Below are positions 42,439-51,605 of a DNA stretch of 64,000 bases, piece after piece. A program made the position numbers and the translations under genes. The notes below the pieces were generated by a model, which was not told the DNA's origin, did no database searches, and saw only the letters and a program-made list of their open reading frames with translations. This DNA comes from Escherichia coli (GTDB lineage Bacteria > Pseudomonadota > Gammaproteobacteria > Enterobacterales > Enterobacteriaceae), in NCBI RefSeq assembly GCF_003334785.1, contig NZ_QOWV01000001.1. One strand, written 5' to 3'. Every line of letters begins with the position of its first letter. Position 1 is the first letter of the stretch.

Positions 42439-44031
42439 GTGTTAGTTTCCAGTAACGTCACCATGCAGTTCGGCAGTAAGCCGTTGTTTGAAAACATTTC
42501 CGTCAAATTTGGCGGCGGCAACCGTTACGGCCTGATTGGCGCGAACGGTAGTGGTAAATCCACCTTTATGAAGATCCTCGGCGGCGACCTTGAGCCGACG
42601 CTGGGTAACGTTTCCCTCGATCCCAACGAGCGCATTGGTAAACTGCGTCAGGATCAGTTTGCCTTTGAAGAGTTCACTGTGCTGGATACGGTGATCATGG
42701 GGCATAAAGAGTTGTGGGAAGTGAAGCAGGAGCGCGACCGCATCTATGCTTTGCCGGAAATGAGTGAAGAAGACGGCTATAAAGTGGCCGATCTGGAAGT
42801 TAAATACGGCGAAATGGACGGTTACTCTGCGGAAGCTCGCGCCGGTGAACTGTTGCTTGGCGTGGGAATTCCAGTGGAACAGCACTACGGCCCGATGAGT
42901 GAAGTTGCTCCTGGCTGGAAGCTGCGTGTGCTTCTGGCGCAGGCGCTGTTTGCTGATCCGGATATTCTCCTGCTCGACGAACCGACCAACAACCTCGACA
43001 TCGACACCATTCGCTGGCTGGAACAGGTGCTGAACGAGCGTGACAGCACCATGATCATCATCTCGCACGACCGTCACTTCCTTAACATGGTCTGTACCCA
43101 CATGGCGGATCTGGATTACGGCGAGCTGCGCGTTTATCCGGGTAACTACGATGAGTACATGACGGCGGCGACCCAGGCGCGTGAACGTCTGCTGGCCGAT
43201 AACGCCAAGAAGAAAGCGCAGATTGCTGAGTTGCAATCTTTCGTTAGCCGCTTTAGCGCCAACGCCTCGAAATCTCGCCAGGCAACTTCGCGCGCGCGCC
43301 AGATTGATAAAATCAAACTGGAAGAGGTGAAAGCCTCCAGCCGTCAGAACCCGTTCATCCGTTTTGAACAGGATAAGAAACTGTTCCGTAACGCGCTGGA
43401 AGTGGAAGGTCTGACCAAAGGGTTTGATAACGGTCCGCTGTTTAAAAATCTCAACCTGCTGCTGGAAGTGGGTGAAAAACTGGCGGTACTGGGTACCAAC
43501 GGCGTCGGTAAATCAACGCTGCTGAAAACGCTGGTGGGCGATCTGCAACCGGACAGCGGCACCGTAAAATGGTCTGAGAACGCGCGCATTGGTTACTATG
43601 CTCAGGACCACGAATATGAGTTTGAAAATGATCTGACCGTGTTCGAATGGATGAGCCAGTGGAAGCAGGAAGGCGATGACGAGCAGGCGGTACGCAGTAT
43701 TCTCGGTCGTTTGCTGTTCAGCCAGGACGACATCAAAAAGCCAGCTAAAGTGCTTTCCGGTGGGGAAAAAGGGCGGATGCTGTTTGGTAAGTTAATGATG
43801 CAGAAGCCGAACATTCTGATCATGGACGAACCGACCAACCACCTGGATATGGAATCCATTGAGTCGCTGAACATGGCACTGGAACTGTATCAGGGCACGC
43901 TGATCTTTGTTTCACACGACCGTGAGTTCGTAAGCTCCCTGGCGACCCGCATTCTGGAAATCACCCCGGAACGCGTGATCGACTTTAGCGGTAATTACGA
44001 AGATTACCTGCGTAGTAAAGGGATCGAGTAA
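42439..44031 (+). CDS. ybiT: YbiT, ABC-F family ATPase (530 aa)
   Basis: Two Walker A motifs ([18 protein letters not shown]), no TM domain; GTG start at 42439. Confidence 0.92.
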
Positions 44032-44038
44032 GTGATTA

Positions 44039-44069
44039 TCCGTCACCCCGATACTGTCGGGGTGACGGC
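44039..44069 (+). terminator. Hairpin after ybiT stop
   Basis: ccgtcacccc-gatactgtc-ggggtgacgg, 8 nt after TAA; no strong T-run. Confidence 0.5.
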
Positions 44070-44091
44070 GGCTGATGACAAATGCAAAATA

Positions 44092-44189
44092 GCCTGATGC
44101 GCTACGCTTATCAGGCCTACGCAGTACCTGCAATATATTGAATCTGCAGGACTTTGTAGGCCGGATAAGGCGTTAACGCCGCATCAGGC
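44092..44189. repeat. REP/BIME cluster between convergent ybiT and ybiU
   Basis: Same two REP units and caatatattgaat linker as at 2061-2158 and 18765-18863. Confidence 0.85.
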
Positions 44190-44271
44190 ATTAACAAAGC
44201 GCATTTGTCAGCAATCTGAGTAACGTCGAATCGATTTTCTTAATCCCACATCAATTCACTTCCATTAATTC

Positions 44272-45537
44272 TCAAACATCCATGCCCAACGCTCGCTTAC
44301 CGTGAATGTTGAGGTCGGCAAGCGTAAAGCGTCCTTCCCAGTTTGTTTCATAGTCCTCGCGCGGGAAGTCGCCCGGCGATGCGCCTTTTTCCAGTGCGGC
44401 CTTCACCTTGTGCGCGTAGGCAAGATTTTTCTCGCACATCGGTGCCGCAGGAATGTACATCACGTTGCCCCAACCTTGTTGATTTTCAACGGGGGCAACG
44501 GAATGGATGACGTCGCAGTGCCACCAGACGGAGTCTCCGGCTTCGAGTTTTGGAATGCTGGTTAACGCCTCAATCAACAGTGGATGCCATTGCTCTGATA
44601 CCGGCAATACTCTTCCGGGCGCTACGCCGCACAGTTCATCCTCCGGCACATCATCAAGCAGCGGACGTAACAGTACGTACGCCATAGCTTCAGGAATGGG
44701 CACGACGTGCAGCAGCCCCTGACCAGGCAGCATATCAGAGAGCGCTGTCCAGCCCTGGAATGTCCGAAACACGGAACATTTGGTGGTGTTGTCCACCGTG
44801 TACTCTTCAACTTCCGTACGATGTGCCGCATGCCAGGGATCATATTGCGCCAGATTGCCATTAAAGACGTTGGCGAAAACGCGCTGATACGCTGGAAGCA
44901 GCCAGCGTTCCAGTGCCCCGGAGTCGGTATGCGCTCCAAGACCTTTGGAGGTCGTTCCGGGCGGACGGCGGCGGATACGGTCAGGGTAGATGACGCTCAC
45001 ATCCGGGTTAAACCATTGCTTTCCATCACTTTCAAATGTCCACAGACGATTGAGAAACGACTGCGCATTCGCCATTTCTTCACTCTGGCGGGCCTGCATT
45101 TGCGCCTGCGACCAGTAGATGGGGTAAATCTCGGGACGTGAAGCGCTGAGCGTCCCGAAGAAATTATCGCCGGGGCCTTTGTAGACCTCGTCAAAGCGGT
45201 TGCGGTCCAGATAGTCCAGCATCGACTGATCCCAGCCTAGCGCTTGTTCGCGGGGGAAATGGCCTTTTATCACCGCACAACCGCGACGTTTAATCTGTTC
45301 GCGCTGCTCTGCAGTAACATGACCTGCTTTGATATCGGCATAAGACAGCACCGGCCAGACGGCATCGCCCTGTGCTTTGAGTGCGTTGATTTCAGCCACT
45401 CGCGTGGCAATGTCATCGCTTAGCTGATTAAAGATCTGCTGGACGTCGCCAAGCTGCGCCCGCAGCGCGTGCTTCATCTGACGGATAGCTGCTTTGTGAT
45501 CGGCAGGCAATGTGTCGCTGGTAAAAGTAGAAGCCAT
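44272..45537 (-). CDS. ybiU: YbiU, DUF1479-family protein (421 aa)
   Basis: ORF 44272..45543 minus; start at ATG 45537 (MASTFTSDTL). Confidence 0.88.
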   Translation of the reverse strand: MASTFTSDTLPADHKAAIRQMKHALRAQLGDVQQIFNQLSDDIATRVAEINALKAQGDAVWPVLSYADIKAGHVTAEQREQIKRRGCAVIKGHFPREQALGWDQSMLDYLDRNRFDEVYKGPGDNFFGTLSASRPEIYPIYWSQAQMQARQSEEMANAQSFLNRLWTFESDGKQWFNPDVSVIYPDRIRRRPPGTTSKGLGAHTDSGALERWLLPAYQRVFANVFNGNLAQYDPWHAAHRTEVEEYTVDNTTKCSVFRTFQGWTALSDMLPGQGLLHVVPIPEAMAYVLLRPLLDDVPEDELCGVAPGRVLPVSEQWHPLLIEALTSIPKLEAGDSVWWHCDVIHSVAPVENQQGWGNVMYIPAAPMCEKNLAYAHKVKAALEKGASPGDFPREDYETNWEGRFTLADLNIHGKRALGMDV

Positions 45538-45660
45538 AACCACCTCTCATTAACTTTCATTCGAAACCATTCTGATTTGCATGTGACAATATAAGTTATA
45601 AATAAGTTAATGCAAGTTTAATGATTTGATGTGATGTACAGGATGTAAAAAGAAGGGAAA

Positions 45661-45681
45661 ACCGGAGCGCACGGCTCCGGT
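45661..45681 (-). terminator. Putative ybiV terminator
   Basis: Hairpin accggagc-gcacg-gctccggt, followed on the minus strand by a T-rich run. Confidence 0.55.
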
Positions 45682-45688
45682 AGAGAGG

Positions 45689-46504
45689 TCAGCTGTTAAA
45701 AGGGGATGTGTTATCCAGCACCGCCTGAATCACATTCAGCGCGCCTTCATGATTATTATCATCGGTAGCGTAACGGGCGATTTGTTTAATGTTTTCCGCA
45801 GCATTGCCCATCGCAAAGGAATAACGCGCCATTTTCAGCATCTCCGCATCGTTACCGCTGTCGCCAATCGCTACCACATTTTGCGGTGACAGATCCCAGC
45901 GTTTCAGTAACCGCGAAATACCGTTTGCTTTATGTAGACCGGGAATAATCAGGTCGATAAAGCCAAAACCACTGGTAACGGGTTTCATAATGCCATCGAG
46001 CGCTACGTGCAGTTTGTCGATCACTAACGGGATTTGTTCATCCGGCAGGTTGAGCGAAAACTTGAACAGTACGTCGTCAATCTCCTGATAATCTTTTACA
46101 GGTTTCAGGCGATGGTAGTGTTTTGCCATCAGTGCGACAAATGCTTCGGGGGCATTTTCGCTGACATATGCACTTTGCAGACCGCAGGCGACAAAATTGA
46201 GTTGCTTATCTTTTAGCAACTCGCCAATAACAATCCGCGATTCATGTCGGGTCAGTTCGCCGTGGAACAACTGCTTGCCATGTTCGTAAACCAGTGCGCC
46301 GTTTTCCGCGACAAAAGAGATCTCATCCTTTAGCTCAGGAAAGAATGAAATAAGCTGGTAATACTGATTACCGCTGGCAACAACGAACTTAATGCCGCGC
46401 TTTTTCAGTTCCTGATATTGCGCCATAAAACGTGGTTGGTTGTACGTTTTGGCGTCGTTAAGAAAAGTACCGTCCATGTCTGTGACGATAACTTTTACGC
46501 TCAT
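45689..46504 (-). CDS. ybiV: YbiV, HAD-superfamily (Cof-type) sugar phosphatase (271 aa)
   Basis: ORF 45689..46504 minus; HAD motif I DMDGTF. Confidence 0.93.
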
Positions 46505-46619
46505 AGGTGTGCTCCTGGCTCGAAAATGAAACCGTAACAGTGTAATAACAATGTGACGCAGAGCACAAATTATATTTCGAATGAAAGTAAGGATGAAATT
46601 GATGATGTGAATGATTTAG

Positions 46620-46640
46620 CCCGGCGACGACGCCGCCGGG
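46620..46640 (-). terminator. Putative ybiW terminator hairpin
   Basis: cccggcg-acgacgc-cgccggg, 10 nt downstream of ybiW stop. Confidence 0.45.
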
Positions 46641-46649
46641 CCGAGGAGA

Positions 46650-49082
46650 TTACAGCATATGTTCAGTACGGGCGATGATATCGTCCTGAGCGTCTGGAGA
46701 GAGCGCGGTGAAGAACGCGGAATAGCCCGCGACACGCACTACCAGATCGCGATACTGATCGGGATGTTTTTTCGCATCCAGCAGCGTTTCGCGGGAAACG
46801 ATGTTGTACTGAATATGCCAGCCTTTATGCACTTCAAAGAAGGTACGCAGCAGGATCATCAGTTTCTGCTTGTCAGATTCGTTCTCCAGCGTTGCCGGAT
46901 TCAGTTTCTGGTTGAGCAACACGCCGCCGAGAATCGCTGCCGTAGGCAGTTTACCCACTGAGCCAATGACCGCAGTAGGGCCAAGATGGTCAGTACCGGA
47001 GGCCGGGCTTGCGCCTTCTGCCAGCGGGGTGTGGGCTTTACGCCCGTCCGGTGTTGCCATAGTCTGCGCGCCAAACGGTACGTTAGCGGAGATTGATGAC
47101 GTACCCGCGTAATAGTTGCCGCCAACCGGACCACGACCGTAGCGCGGATTATGGTACTGTTTCAGTTCGTCGATATAGGTCTGATAAGCGCGAGCCAGCA
47201 GCGTATCGACAGTATCATCGTCGTTGCCGTACTTCGGCGCACCGTTAATCAGCCGCTGACGCAGCTGCTCGTGAGTCAGGCCGTCGAAGTCATCTGCCAG
47301 TGCGGCAGCAAGCTGTTGCTGACCAATCGCACCTTGTTCAAACACCAGTTTCTTCACTGCCGCCAGGCTGTTGCCGAGGTTGGCAATGCCGACCTGCAGG
47401 CCAGAAACCCAGTCATATTTCGCGCCGCCTTGCTTGATACTTTTCGCTCGCTCAATACAGTCATCCACCAGCGCCGAGCAGAGAATATCGTGCACGTTCT
47501 CTTCCAGCATGGTGTCGACGACATATTCGATTTCGATTGATTTGCGGGTGTAGTAACGGATTTGCGTATCCCACGCGTCCATCACTTCATCGAAGTTGTT
47601 GAAGTTACCTGCCGACAACGCTTTTTCTTGTGGCAGGAACACTTTGCCGCTGGTGGCATCATGCCCGCCTTCCAGCGCCGCCAGCATCACGCGGGCGAAG
47701 TTGATAAAGCTCATGCCGGTACAGCGATAGCCCCATTTGCCACCGACGGCGGTTTCTATACAACCAATCGCTGCGTAGTCATAAGCGTCCTGCGGTTCAA
47801 TACCGAGTTTAATAAATTCCGGGATCACGATTTCGTCGTTGTTGAACGCCGGCATCCCGAAGCCGCAACGGATCACCTGTACGCAGGCGTCGAGGAAATC
47901 GTTGCTCATTCCTGCATGGTAACGCACGCTGAGGTTAGGCTGAGTGGAACGCAGGCGACCGCAGGATTCGAGGATCGCGTAAGAGAGTGGATTCACCGCG
48001 TCCATTGGTTGACCATCAACCAGATTTTGCCCGCCAATAGTGACGTTCTGATACAGCGGACTTCCCGCAGAGGCTTTTGAGTGTGAGCCGGAGCGGATCT
48101 TGTTCACTTCCAGCAGTTTCAGCCAGCAGCTATGCAGCATCTCGATGGCGTGTTCGCGATCCAGCGTCTGGTTGAGTTCAACGTCGCGGCGATAGTACGG
48201 GTAGAGATACTGGTCCATACGACCAAACGATACTGAGTGACCGTTAGATTCGATCTGCAAAATCAACTGGATGAAGTAACACAGTTGCAGCGCCTGCCAG
48301 AAAGTCTGCGGCGGCTGGTGGGCGATAAGATCGCAGTTTTCTGCCATCGCCAGCAGTTCATCGCGACGGCTTTCGCGGGTTTCGGTCGCGGCCATTTCAC
48401 GCGCCAGGGCAGCGAAACGTTCAATGTGTTCACTGACTGCCACCAGCACGATATCAATCGCTTTCAGGAATTGCTCACCGTGTAAATCTTCCAGCACCGT
48501 CAGGTTGATGCGCGAGCGACGTTCCGCTACTTTCTCGCGCAGACCATCAAGCCCTTTTTCCAGCAGCAGCGGGAAATTCACCGCCAGGTGCGCATCGCCG
48601 GAGGTCATATTGCCTTCCGCTTTAATGATTCCGGTCGCCAGCAGACCTTTTTGCTCATCGGTAAACATGCCGTAGCAGCGATCCTGTACGGTCTGACCGC
48701 GCCACCACGGGCACACTTCATGCAGAACGCGTTTGTTCTCTTCGCTCACCGCAAAGCCAGCACCGGGACGATCTGCCAGATCATCAATCTCTTTTTCGAT
48801 CCACGAGACAGTATATTCCGGGAAGATCGGCGCGGCGCGAACTTCGCTTGCCTGGTTGCCAATGATCAACTCATCGTGTTTGATCCAGATGGTGCGATTC
48901 GCCAGGTGATGCGCCAGTGCCAGCGCGCGACGTACCGGGATCGGCTTATCGAGATGTTGTTGATACATCTCGGTATAGTGCTGCGCGCGCTCGGTACAGA
49001 CTGGCGGTTTCACAATATGCACCAGCGCATTTTTGTGCGCTTTAATGCGGTCGCTGAGCGTGTCCAGTTTCAGTGTGGTCAT
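46650..49082 (-). CDS. ybiW: YbiW, glycyl radical enzyme (pyruvate formate-lyase-like; 810 aa)
   Basis: ORF 46650..49082 minus; C-terminal glycyl-radical signature RVAGYSAFF. Confidence 0.93.
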   Translation of the reverse strand: MTTLKLDTLSDRIKAHKNALVHIVKPPVCTERAQHYTEMYQQHLDKPIPVRRALALAHHLANRTIWIKHDELIIGNQASEVRAAPIFPEYTVSWIEKEIDDLADRPGAGFAVSEENKRVLHEVCPWWRGQTVQDRCYGMFTDEQKGLLATGIIKAEGNMTSGDAHLAVNFPLLLEKGLDGLREKVAERRSRINLTVLEDLHGEQFLKAIDIVLVAVSEHIERFAALAREMAATETRESRRDELLAMAENCDLIAHQPPQTFWQALQLCYFIQLILQIESNGHSVSFGRMDQYLYPYYRRDVELNQTLDREHAIEMLHSCWLKLLEVNKIRSGSHSKASAGSPLYQNVTIGGQNLVDGQPMDAVNPLSYAILESCGRLRSTQPNLSVRYHAGMSNDFLDACVQVIRCGFGMPAFNNDEIVIPEFIKLGIEPQDAYDYAAIGCIETAVGGKWGYRCTGMSFINFARVMLAALEGGHDATSGKVFLPQEKALSAGNFNNFDEVMDAWDTQIRYYTRKSIEIEYVVDTMLEENVHDILCSALVDDCIERAKSIKQGGAKYDWVSGLQVGIANLGNSLAAVKKLVFEQGAIGQQQLAAALADDFDGLTHEQLRQRLINGAPKYGNDDDTVDTLLARAYQTYIDELKQYHNPRYGRGPVGGNYYAGTSSISANVPFGAQTMATPDGRKAHTPLAEGASPASGTDHLGPTAVIGSVGKLPTAAILGGVLLNQKLNPATLENESDKQKLMILLRTFFEVHKGWHIQYNIVSRETLLDAKKHPDQYRDLVVRVAGYSAFFTALSPDAQDDIIARTEHML

Positions 49083-49087
49083 GGTTG

Positions 49088-49987
49088 TTATCCTCGTAAG
49101 GTCGCGGTTAACCCTTTCTGGCAGGCATACTGCTGGGCAAAGTCGAGCAGTTCTGGCGCATCAAGCGGTTTTTCCGGGGCGTCATAGGGCAGATTAAGTA
49201 AGTGATATTTGTTGATGCCCAGCGTGTGGTAGGGCAGAAAATGAATTTCGCCAACGTGCAGCTCGTCGGCGGCAAAATCGGTAATGGCTTTTACAGAGGT
49301 TTCGTCGGCATTAAAGCCCTGAATCAGCGGCACGCGGATAATGATTTTTTTGCCCGCTGCGGCGAGTTTTTTCAGGTTATCCAGCACTCTGGCGGCGTTA
49401 CCGTCGGTCCACTGTTTAAACGGCGCGTCGGCAACGTGTTTTAAATCGGCAAGAAACAGATCGATATAGGGCAGAGAAGGGGCGATATATTTCCACGGCA
49501 CATGCAGACAGGTTTCTACCGCAGTATGAATGCCTGCCTCGTGGCTGGCTTGCAGTAGCGCCATCGCCATTTCCGGCTGCATAAAGGGCTCACCACCCGA
49601 AAGCGTTAAACCGCCGCCGCTGCGATCGTAAAACGGTTTATCGCGCAGAACGGTCGTCATGATCTCCTCAACGCTTTTCACTTCACCACACACGGTTAAT
49701 GCCTGTGTCGGACAGCAGTCGGTTAACGCCGTCAGATGCTCCGGGGTTAACTTTTCCCGATGAATAAGCAAACCATTCAGCGCGCGCTCAATCACTTCCG
49801 GCGCGGCCTTAGCGCACAGCTCGCAGCCTTCCAGACACAGTCGTGCGTCATACAGCAGATCCTGCGTGCGGGCGCGGCTTTCCGGGTTCTGACACCAGCG
49901 GCAGCCCAGCGAACAGCCTTTAAGAAATACGACCGTGCGGATACCGGGGCCATCATGGGTCGAGTAGCGCTGAATATTGAAAATCAT
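49088..49987 (-). CDS. ybiY: YbiY, glycyl-radical-enzyme activating enzyme (radical SAM)
   Basis: ORF 49088..50014 minus; CSLGCRWC radical-SAM motif and further Cys clusters; start placed at ATG 49987 (GAGAGG RBS), the upstream ATG at 50014 has no RBS. Confidence 0.88.
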
Positions 49988-50117
49988 AGTTGCCTCTCTA
50001 TTTCGTTCAAGCATTAAAATACTTTCGAATGAAAGTTAGATTGATGTGCGTCAACTGTTCAGAGAGTTTTCCCGTGATAGTCTACATTCAGACAAAAAGT
50101 ACATTTTGAGGATGGTT

Positions 50118-50780
50118 ATGGAACTGTATCTGGATACTTCAGACGTTGTTGCGGTGAAGGCGCTGTCACGTATTTTTCCGCTGGCGGGTGTGACCACTAA
50201 CCCAAGCATTATCGCCGCGGGTAAAAAACCGCTGGATGTTGTGCTTCCGCAACTTCATGAAGCGATGGGCGGTCAGGGGCGTCTGTTTGCCCAGGTAATG
50301 GCTACCACTGCCGAAGGGATGGTTAATGACGCGCTTAAGCTGCGTTCTATTATTGCGGATATCGTGGTGAAAGTTCCGGTGACCGCCGAGGGGCTGGCAG
50401 CTATTAAGATGTTAAAAGCGGAAGGGATTCCGACGCTGGGAACCGCGGTATATGGCGCAGCACAAGGGCTGCTGTCGGCGCTGGCAGGTGCGGAATATGT
50501 TGCGCCTTACGTTAATCGTATTGATGCTCAGGGCGGTAGCGGCATTCAGACTGTGACCGACTTACACCAGTTATTGAAAATGCATGCGCCGCAGGCGAAA
50601 GTGCTGGCAGCGAGTTTCAAAACCCCGCGTCAGGCGCTGGACTGCTTACTGGCAGGATGTGAATCAATTACTCTGCCACTGGATGTGGCACAACAGATGA
50701 TTAGCTATCCGGCGGTTGATGCCGCTGTGGCGAAGTTTGAGCAGGACTGGCAGGGAGCGTTTGGCAGAACGTCGATTTAA
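50118..50780 (+). CDS. fsaA: FsaA, fructose-6-phosphate aldolase 1 (220 aa)
   Basis: ORF 50046..50780; start at ATG 50118 ([10 protein letters not shown]); GAGGATGG RBS. Confidence 0.93.
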
Positions 50781-50793
50781 CCGGACGTTCTGC
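50764..50793. terminator. 10-bp perfect-stem hairpin spanning the fsaA stop codon, between convergent fsaA and moeB
   Basis: gcagaacgtc-gatttaaccg-gacgttctgc; no clear T-run on either side. Confidence 0.4.
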
Positions 50794-50855
50794 ATCCTCA
50801 TAAATTGCTGATGACGTGGCGGAGTGCCGCGTCTTATCAGGCCTGGAGGTGGCAA

Positions 50856-51605
50856 TTACTGCCCACACACCTCACACCCCGGATTACGCATCAGTTTCAT
50901 TTCGCGAAACTGACAGGTCATCGCATCGTACATGACGATTTTCCCGCTGGCCGGTTTGCCATAACCTGCCAGCATTTTGATCGCTTCCATTGCCTGCAAC
51001 GAACCAATTACGCCGATCAACGGTGCCATTACGCCTGCTTCCACGCAGGTTAATGCATTTTCACCAAACAAACGGCTAAGGCAGCGATAGCACGGTTCAC
51101 CGTCCTGATAAGTAAAGACGGTGATTTGACCTTCCATACGAATTGCCGCGCCGGAAACCAGCGGTACCTTCGCGGCAAAACAGCCTGCGTTCAGTTGATT
51201 ACGTACCGCAACGTTATCCGTACAGTCGAGCACCAGATCGTGTTCAGCAATCAATGCTGCAAGTTCTGCGTCATCCAGCAGTGCATTGACTGGCGTAATC
51301 GCGATATGTGGGTTGATCCGCGTCAGGGCGTCACGGGCGGATTCCACCTTCGGTTGCCCGACCGTGGCATCACTGTGCAGTGTCTGGCGTTGCAGATTCG
51401 AGAGCGAAACCGTGTCGAAGTCGAGCAGCGTCAGGTTACCGACACCGGCGCTTGCCAGATACTGCGAGGCTGCACAGCCGAGGCCGCCCAGGCCCACTAT
51501 CAGCACGCGAGAATCTTTCAGCGCCTCCTGGCCGTCAAAATCAAAGCCGCGCAGAATGATTTGCCGGTTGTAGCGCAGCATCTCCTGATCGCTGAGTTCC
51601 GCCAT
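50856..51605 (-). CDS. moeB: MoeB, molybdopterin-synthase adenylyltransferase (249 aa)
   Basis: Nucleotide-binding GLGGLG motif; C-terminal CxxC pairs. Confidence 0.95.
   Translation of the reverse strand: MAELSDQEMLRYNRQIILRGFDFDGQEALKDSRVLIVGLGGLGCAASQYLASAGVGNLTLLDFDTVSLSNLQRQTLHSDATVGQPKVESARDALTRINPHIAITPVNALLDDAELAALIAEHDLVLDCTDNVAVRNQLNAGCFAAKVPLVSGAAIRMEGQITVFTYQDGEPCYRCLSRLFGENALTCVEAGVMAPLIGVIGSLQAMEAIKMLAGYGKPASGKIVMYDAMTCQFREMKLMRNPGCEVCGQ

Follow-up and report, generated by a model that had tools for sequence, protein, structure and literature searches.

The 64-kb stretch of Escherichia coli DNA analyzed here (the window) carries a small gene group around YbiW, a glycyl radical enzyme. 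RefSeq annotates ybiU, ybiV, ybiW and ybiY on the minus strand and fsaA (as fsa) on the plus strand, and positions 44272-50780 are the exact span from the stop codon of ybiU to that of fsaA (Table 1). A gap of 5 nt separates ybiY from ybiW on their common strand, fsaA is divergent from ybiY, and each of the 5426 complete genomes of E. coli has a match to positions 44000-51000. The genes and motifs agree with an earlier, sequence-only reading of this DNA, and the starts of three open reading frames (ORFs) are adjusted to RefSeq: ybiY begins at ATG 49987 (299 aa) and not as a 308-aa ORF from 50014, fsaA begins at ATG 50118 (220 aa) and not as a 244-aa ORF, and the ATG of ybiU is corrected to 45537.

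Table 1. Genes and putative regulatory features of the ybiU-fsaA region (window positions).
Feature	Position	Strand	Description
ybiU	44272..45537	-	DUF1479/Gig2-like protein; predicted Fe(II)/2-oxoglutarate-dioxygenase fold
operator copy 3	45553..45568	-	core TTTCGAATGAAA; ybiV-ybiU gap, just upstream of the ybiU ribosome-binding site
promoter-like site	45649-45621	-	beyond the terminator-like hairpin of ybiV
intrinsic-terminator-like hairpin with T tract	45661..45681	-	directly after the ybiV stop; terminator scan and sequence
ybiV	45689..46504	-	Cof-type HAD-IIB sugar-phosphate phosphatase, DMDGTF
operator copy 2	46588-46573	-	ACTTTCATTCGAAATA; ybiW-ybiV gap, abutting a perfect TATAAT (46574-46569); the feature 46569..46588 is the putative ybiV promoter region
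GC-rich hairpin without T tail	46619..46641	-	after the ybiW stop; not a canonical terminator; read from the sequence, unflagged by the terminator scan
ybiW	46650..49082	-	glycyl radical enzyme; published 1,5-anhydroglucitol-6-phosphate ring-opening C-O lyase
ybiY	49088..49987	-	radical-SAM activase of YbiW; Cys-rich insert besides CxxxCxxC
-10-like hexamer TTTAAT	50013..50018	-	putative ybiY promoter; from sequence
operator copy 1	50021..50036	.	perfect palindrome ACTTTCATTCGAAAGT between fsaA and ybiY; conserved alignment block (62 regions)
FNR-like box	50041..50054	.	TTGAC-GCAC-ATCAA; 19 bp centre-to-centre from operator copy 1
fsaA	50118..50780	+	fructose-6-phosphate aldolase 1

YbiW carries the glycyl radical motif RVAGYSAFF at residues 783-791 (Gly786 codon, 46725-46727) and the thiyl loop GCIE at residues 440-443 (Cys441-x-Glu443; Cys441 codon, 47760-47762). 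Such a Cys-x-Glu loop typifies glycyl radical enzymes of the eliminase type, and nowhere in the YbiW sequence do two Cys residues stand next to each other. The NCBIfam model TIGR01774 (1410.9 bits, cut-off 678.2) assigns the protein to the PFL2/glycerol-dehydratase subfamily of glycyl radical enzymes, and Pfam Gly_radical is recorded in its orthologues. YbiY contains the radical-SAM motif CSLGCRWC (CxxxCxxC, 49892-49915), a further CLEGCELC cluster and a CC pair, and scores 370 bits with TIGR02494 (cut-off 174). FsaA scores 451.5 bits with NF009296 (cut-off 306) and 279.1 bits with TIGR00875 (cut-off 245.95). The genes and motifs named by the sequence-only reading (RVAGYSAFF, radical-SAM CxxxCxxC, the extra Cys clusters and the DMDGTF of YbiV) are all found in the translations, and its complete enzyme-activase pair with a divergent fsaA is confirmed by motifs, NCBIfam scores and RefSeq positions.

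The older labels "putative pyruvate formate lyase" and "formate C-acetyltransferase" would instead make YbiW a pyruvate or 2-ketoacid formate-lyase. YbiW does have a fold like that of pyruvate formate-lyase (PFL), and the PFL label persists among some PDB and K-12 names of its relatives. Against this, YbiW fails the PFL equivalogs TIGR01255 (165 bits, cut-off 994) and NF007437 (579 bits, cut-off 1109), it possesses the single Cys followed by Glu of the eliminase and dehydratase enzymes without the CC dipeptide of PFL, and in a PDB search PFL itself is a distant match (3e-44). We therefore assign this alternative a negligible likelihood. The same fold and the Gly and Cys-x-Glu elements are common to YbiW, B12-independent glycerol dehydratase, propanediol dehydratase, HypD and CutC, and YbiY, with its extra Fe-S clusters, is of the same type as the activases of glycyl radical eliminases. 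YbiW falls below the cut-off of every NCBIfam equivalog model for these enzymes. It matches PDB entries 8ID7 and 8YJN, both named YbiW, over its full length (residues 1-810, 1862.9 bits); 8YJO is a structure of its paralogue PflD, and outside the YbiW/PflD group no characterized structure comes closer than 1R8W, a B12-independent glycerol dehydratase (1e-163).

1,5-Anhydroglucitol (AG), that is 1-deoxyglucose, is a dietary sugar analogue, and an anhydroglycolysis pathway of 2024 is said to have given YbiW, PflD, FsaA, FsaB and GldA physiological roles. FsaA and FsaB reportedly split 1-deoxyfructose-6-phosphate (DF6P) into glyceraldehyde-3-phosphate and hydroxyacetone, and GldA reportedly reduces hydroxyacetone to 1,2-propanediol. 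As summarized in a later review, YbiW cleaves 1,5-anhydroglucitol-6-phosphate (AG6P) to DF6P, PflD cleaves the mannitol epimer 1,5-anhydromannitol-6-phosphate (1,5-AM6P) to the same product, and in both cases phosphorylation of the polyol by a phosphotransferase system (PTS) precedes cleavage (Ma et al., JACS 2024;146:26187, via PMC12441222). According to the same summary, the pathway enables E. coli to use AG for growth (PMC12441222). The aldolase FSAA accepts hydroxyacetone as donor, and its role in vivo was still termed enigmatic in 2020 (PMC7767278).

Given these reports, we read the locus as the E. coli module for the anaerobic breakdown of AG, with control by YciT and FNR and with YbiV and YbiU in its regulon, at a probability of about 0.88. 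The pathway function of YbiW is already published, and the remaining question is the roles of YbiU and YbiV. The earlier statement that the YbiW substrate was not firmly established is outdated by the 2024 report of AG6P (Ma et al., via PMC12441222), and with that substrate summarized there the system can no longer be called the least understood in the window; a proven substrate in print was one of two outcomes that this reading had itself named as its refutation. Its proposal of an anaerobic sugar-phosphate route into fructose-6-phosphate or triose chemistry holds in part: the substrate is a sugar phosphate and the products are at the triose level, but the route passes through a 1-deoxy analogue and not through fructose-6-phosphate.

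In the proposed route, AG would be taken up and phosphorylated to AG6P by a PTS and the AG6P ring opened by YbiW to yield DF6P, both of which are published steps. The radical chemistry of the second step may be drawn by analogy with glycyl radical eliminases such as B12-independent glycerol dehydratase. YbiY, as the radical-SAM activase, would place a radical on Gly786, from which it would be transferred to Cys441 of the GCIE loop; the Cys441 thiyl radical would then take the hydrogen from C2 of AG6P, the ketyl radical so formed would expel the ring oxygen from C1 with breakage of the C1-O5 bond, and return of a hydrogen atom would give DF6P. As in the eliminases, a radical at a hydroxyl-bearing carbon would expel a beta leaving group; unlike in them, it is a cyclic ether whose ring oxygen would leave, and the outcome is an opened ring and not the loss of water or an amine. 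FsaA would next cleave DF6P to hydroxyacetone and glyceraldehyde-3-phosphate, the latter entering glycolysis, and GldA, whose gene lies elsewhere in the E. coli genome, would convert hydroxyacetone to 1,2-propanediol.

The paralogous cluster of K-12, in which gldA-fsaB-ptsA diverges from frwCB-pflDC-frwD, likewise combines a glycyl radical enzyme, an activase and an FSA-type (fructose-6-phosphate aldolase) enzyme, and DF6P is the product in both systems. YbiW and PflD are 38% identical and have GC(I/V)E (GCVE in PflD at the aligned position) and RVAGYSAFF in common, FsaA and FsaB are 70% identical, and the two substrates are epimers, with glucitol and mannitol configuration at C2, respectively. 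In contrast to the ybi cluster, the pflD cluster includes genes for a PTS (ptsA, frwCBD), gldA and the gene of an AraC-type regulator, yijO, and has no ACTTTC-N4-GAAAGT site; neither a transporter gene nor gldA belongs to the ybi cluster, which is under unlinked YciT control and alone contains ybiV and ybiU.

A genome scan at a YbiW identity of at least 85% yielded 80 loci from 80 species, all Enterobacterales. YbiY is encoded directly upstream of ybiW in 80 of 80, and fsaA stands divergently beside ybiY in most of them, including 15 that lie outside the ybiT...moeAB context of E. coli. Both ybiV and ybiU are confined to that context, with ybiU of Rouxiella as the sole exception. Comparison of neighborhoods, which the sequence-only reading had proposed as a check on its grouping of ybiU, ybiV and fsaA, thus upholds fsaA, which co-travels with ybiYW, and does not extend to ybiV, which is absent once the module is relocated, nor, save in Rouxiella, to ybiU. 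Loss of fsaA between ybiY and moeB, with ybiY-ybiW-ybiV-ybiU kept, is seen at L011, L012, L021, L027, L029, L030, L034, L039, L055, L065 and L066; such loci include those of Salmonella enterica subsp. diarizonae and Klebsiella michiganensis. Where fsaA is missing, the aldolase step must come from elsewhere or the product must have another fate.

The Rouxiella aceris locus (L061, 5074-19056) comprises a YciT-like gene, ybiU, fsaA, ybiY, ybiW, a ROK sugar kinase gene and gldA, together with another YciT-like gene, the gene of a GluP-type MFS transporter and ptsG. This single locus covers the published AG route in full, from uptake through phosphorylation to the last step. A TTTCATATGAAA site lies upstream of the transporter gene, and the gap of about 1 kb between ybiU and fsaA (7238-8294) contains one 75-aa ORF and otherwise no ORF of at least 70 aa.

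Four Yersinia loci (L076, L078, L079 and L081; for example L079, 7310-13870) have ybiYW flanked by sgrR on one side and by a sugar efflux gene of SetA/B type on the other; fsaA, yciT and the ACTTTC-N4-GAAAGT site are all absent from the vicinity. A short SgrS-like match to RF00534 directly after the ybiW stop (L079, 12481-12557) scores 28.8 bits, below the Rfam gathering score of 37, and is a hint only. This arrangement suggests that Yersinia has drawn YbiW into its locus for glucose-phosphate stress, a placement that fits AG6P as a non-metabolizable analogue of glucose-6-phosphate.

Beyond the Enterobacterales, the best YbiW representative (54% identity; L083, GCA_002841395.1) sits between a ROK kinase gene and a YciT-like DeoR regulator gene. 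Its locus (4110-15652) encodes YbiW-like and PflD-like enzymes side by side, the latter 44% identical to PflD, with a single activase, and also a Cof-type HAD protein, an AraC regulator, a cupin of the D-lyxose/D-mannose isomerase family and a lactonase-family protein; it may represent a merged anhydro-sugar locus. The AG6P assignment was not extended to YbiW relatives at 43-46% identity, which occupy different sugar contexts and have no FSA.

Two lines of evidence point to YciT as the regulator. In Gao et al. 2021, chromatin immunoprecipitation with exonuclease digestion (ChIP-exo) gives a YciT peak between "operon ybiUVWY" and fsaA, and fsaA, ybiY and ybiV are differentially expressed direct YciT targets by ChIP-exo and RNA sequencing (RNA-seq). 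Synteny reaches YciT independently of ChIP-exo: a gene for YciT or a YciT-like protein (about 250 aa, DeoR family) lies beside ybiW or fsaA in 14 relocated loci. With NF040887 (cut-off 450), that of Buttiauxella L069 scores 496.6 bits and those of L061 and L080 score 364-396 bits, below the cut-off; the remaining YciT-like genes were assigned by clustering. In Buttiauxella and Serratia the module occupies the native yciT-yciH-pyrF locus, and the E. coli module has become separated from its regulator.

Alignment of 62 fsaA-ybiY intergenic regions revealed two conserved palindromes. The core 12-mer TTTCGAATGAAA of the 16-bp palindrome ACTTTC-N4-GAAAGT occurs exactly three times in the window, once in each intergenic region of the locus, a number that none of 100 shuffles reached. 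Across species, a search with TTTC-N4-GAAA located a site ahead of ybiY in 71 of the 80 loci; ybiV is preceded by one in 51 of 54 species, at 79-83 nt from its ATG, and ybiU in 50 of 51; other such sites number only 30 in 1.57 Mb, and the flanking positions, unconstrained by the search, are conserved too. Neither the pflD cluster nor the surroundings of the yciT promoter contained a YciT-type operator. We infer from position and conservation that this palindrome is the YciT binding site. The unlinked DeoR-type YciT would then govern expression through the palindromes before ybiY/fsaA, ybiV and ybiU. Because the same palindrome precedes ybiY, ybiV and ybiU separately, ybiV and ybiU are probably co-regulated with ybiYW and not chance neighbors, and they appear to belong to the same regulon as ybiYW in Enterobacteriaceae.

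Alternatively, ybiV and ybiU could be unrelated to the YbiW pathway and adjacent to it only through shared local synteny in Enterobacteriaceae. Consistent with this, ybiV is absent from every locus in which ybiYW-fsaA has left ybiT...moeAB, as is ybiU except in Rouxiella; ybiU stands in its own terminator-separated transcription unit; and a second DUF1479 clade is found at the unrelated alaC-ypdAB locus. Yet a fixed distance separates the palindrome from the start codons of ybiV (51/54 species) and ybiU (50/51), conserved flanks included, ChIP-exo and RNA-seq place ybiV among the direct targets of YciT (Gao et al. 2021), ybiU adjoins fsaA in the rearranged Rouxiella cluster, and a Cof-type HAD gene accompanies the 54% YbiW orthologue in L083. 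We thus regard mere adjacency as unlikely, and the co-travel of fsaA together with the conserved operator copies before ybiV and ybiU does not bear out the chance arrangement that the sequence-only reading had named as its possible refutation.

The FNR-like box next to operator copy 1 differs by one mismatch in E. coli from TTGAT-N4-ATCAA, the motif that at class II FNR promoters is centered near -41.5 of the transcription start. It is present with at most one mismatch in 50 of the 62 aligned regions and perfect in 11, and in 47 regions it keeps the fixed 19-bp spacing from the operator. TTTAAT stands at the -10 position predicted from a class II FNR box in 38 of 50 species. The ybiYW promoter may contain a class II FNR site, with a predicted transcription start near window position 50006, which would restrict expression to anaerobiosis. 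An FNR-like box occurs at the ybiY promoter only, and ybiV and ybiU have the operator without it. From the terminator-like hairpin and T tract after ybiV and from the separate operators, the locus looks like three transcription units (ybiYW, ybiV and ybiU) plus the divergent fsaA, with one operator type common to all. Just upstream of the fsaA ribosome-binding site, most species also conserve a AAATGTGA block at the positions that align with window 50100-50117, where the E. coli copy (AAATGTAC) is degenerate; this block could be a CRP half-site or an element of the 5'-untranslated region.

Several observations weigh against the AG reading. The AG6P assignment rests on the secondary summary in PMC12441222 and on deposited structures, while names remain generic ("Probable dehydratase YbiW" in PDB, "PFL2/glycerol dehydratase family" in NCBIfam). 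Transporter and PTS genes and gldA are lacking from the ybi locus of E. coli; some twelve loci of Enterobacteriaceae, and Yersinia, have ybiYW without fsaA; and the YbiW relatives at 43-46% identity sit in other sugar contexts without FSA. As for regulation, YciT binding to the palindrome, FNR control and the start site are putative, and a literature search returned no paper linking ybiY to FNR.

YbiW might accordingly be a sugar-phosphate or diol eliminase acting on another compound, with AG6P not its main physiological substrate. The persisting generic names in PDB and NCBIfam, the species that have ybiYW and lack fsaA, and the Yersinia context, which suggests detoxification over catabolism, would all agree with such a role. 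It conflicts with the support that the pathway gives to growth of E. coli on AG, as reviewed in PMC12441222, and with the genomic context, in which a kinase or PTS, FSA, GldA and a DeoR sugar-phosphate regulator match a 1-deoxy-hexose-6-phosphate exactly, since FSA is known to use hydroxyacetone as donor and GldA to act on it. We consider this alternative very improbable and retain AG6P as the substrate. That the locus seems unassigned from sequence alone follows from the generic names kept by RefSeq, NCBIfam (June 2026) and PDB; a reading of the sequence alone will keep flagging the locus as unknown, and the practical value of this observation is as a warning.

YbiV carries the DMDGTF nucleophile motif at residues 9-14, scores 221.3 bits with the Cof-type HAD-IIB model TIGR00099 (cut-off 137) and is identical to PDB 1RLM/2HF2. 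It has been employed as a mannose-6-phosphate/glucose-6-phosphate (M6P/G6P) phosphatase (PMC12801476). By analogy with YigL in the SgrS response and with human G6PC3, YbiV may serve as a safety valve that dephosphorylates AG6P, and possibly DF6P, and would in this way relieve AG6P accumulation. YbiV and YigL are of the same Cof-type HAD-IIB subfamily, and human G6PC3 dephosphorylates 1,5-AG6P (PMC12441222). The SgrR/SgrS-YigL-SetA response, G6PC3 and the ybi system all handle a non-metabolizable analogue of glucose-6-phosphate; unlike the other two, the ybi system would consume AG6P for carbon and energy, where they just dephosphorylate and export it.

YbiU matches Pfam PF07350 (Gig2-like/DUF1479) at 2.4e-154, and the Pfam search returned Gig2-like only, with no cross-family match. 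A homologue search gave only sequences of at least 85% identity, which added no diversity. A first structure model (AlphaFold2, AF2; 16 close homologues) was discarded at a predicted local distance difference test (pLDDT) score of 38.7; a second, built with 33 sequences from two clades, reached 81.9. In this model YbiU is predicted to adopt the double-stranded beta-helix fold of Fe(II)/2-oxoglutarate (2OG) dioxygenases, in a PhyH-like form. The residues of the putative 2-His-1-carboxylate metal triad, HxD...H (H203-T-D205 and H340/H345), are invariant in the 33 sequences, and Candida Gig2 has them as well. Over the roughly 15 residues that follow H345 the 33 sequences have no conserved Arg or Lys, and the canonical 2OG-binding arginine is not evident; invariant arginines lie elsewhere (R187, R189-R191 and R258). 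The second enterobacterial DUF1479 clade (PDB 4RGK type, 45-50% identical to YbiU) was also considered as a clue to YbiU. In Buttiauxella, Yersinia and Erwinia (L090-L092; gene at 7001-8248) its gene lies between an AlaC-like aminotransferase gene, which a GNAT acetyltransferase gene may accompany, and the genes of a two-component system of LytS/LytTR type; glk is close by, and this alaC-ypdAB-glk locus is uninformative on AG.

One possible role for YbiU is that of an oxygen-dependent partner of YbiW: as an Fe(II)/2OG oxygenase it would hydroxylate C1 of AG or AG6P to a hemiacetal, which is glucose or glucose-6-phosphate, with YbiV as the AG6P phosphatase safety valve. We put this forward as a speculative proposal with the odds against it. 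It fits the promoter layout, in which ybiU and ybiV have the operator without an FNR box and ybiYW has both, such that the oxygen-sensitive YbiW and YbiU, with its predicted oxygen-using fold, stand behind one operator type.

Other features of the region touch the pathway less directly. The convergent ybiT/ybiU intergenic region (44032-44271) contains, at 44040-44068 behind ybiT, a perfect hairpin with a 12-bp stem, and also palindromes of REP/BIME type, GCCTGATGCG...CTTATCAGGCCTAC and GCCGGATAAGGCG...CGCCGCATCAGGC; because of these elements an E. coli genome has, at the median, 17 places that match the 7-kb query. Some E. coli strains (for example NZ_CP115370.1, 3210617-3218896) have a 7-kb region about 1.3 kb longer, with an IS110-like IS621 transposase gene. 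PADLOC returned no defense-system match for YbiU, YbiV, YbiW, YbiY or FsaA.

What the present analysis adds to the published pathway is the co-travel of fsaA and yciT with ybiYW, the triple operator, the FNR-like box at ybiYW alone and the predicted dioxygenase fold of YbiU. The toxic metabolite 1,5-AG6P underlies the neutropenia seen in glycogen storage disease type 1b (GSD1b) and in G6PC3 deficiency. No aerobic AG-degrading enzyme is known, and one would be of interest for the therapy of GSD1b and G6PC3-deficiency neutropenia (PMC12441222). If YbiU does act on anhydroglucitol with oxygen, a gap named in the clinical literature would be filled, and Enterobacteriaceae could use or detoxify AG in air, under common YciT control.

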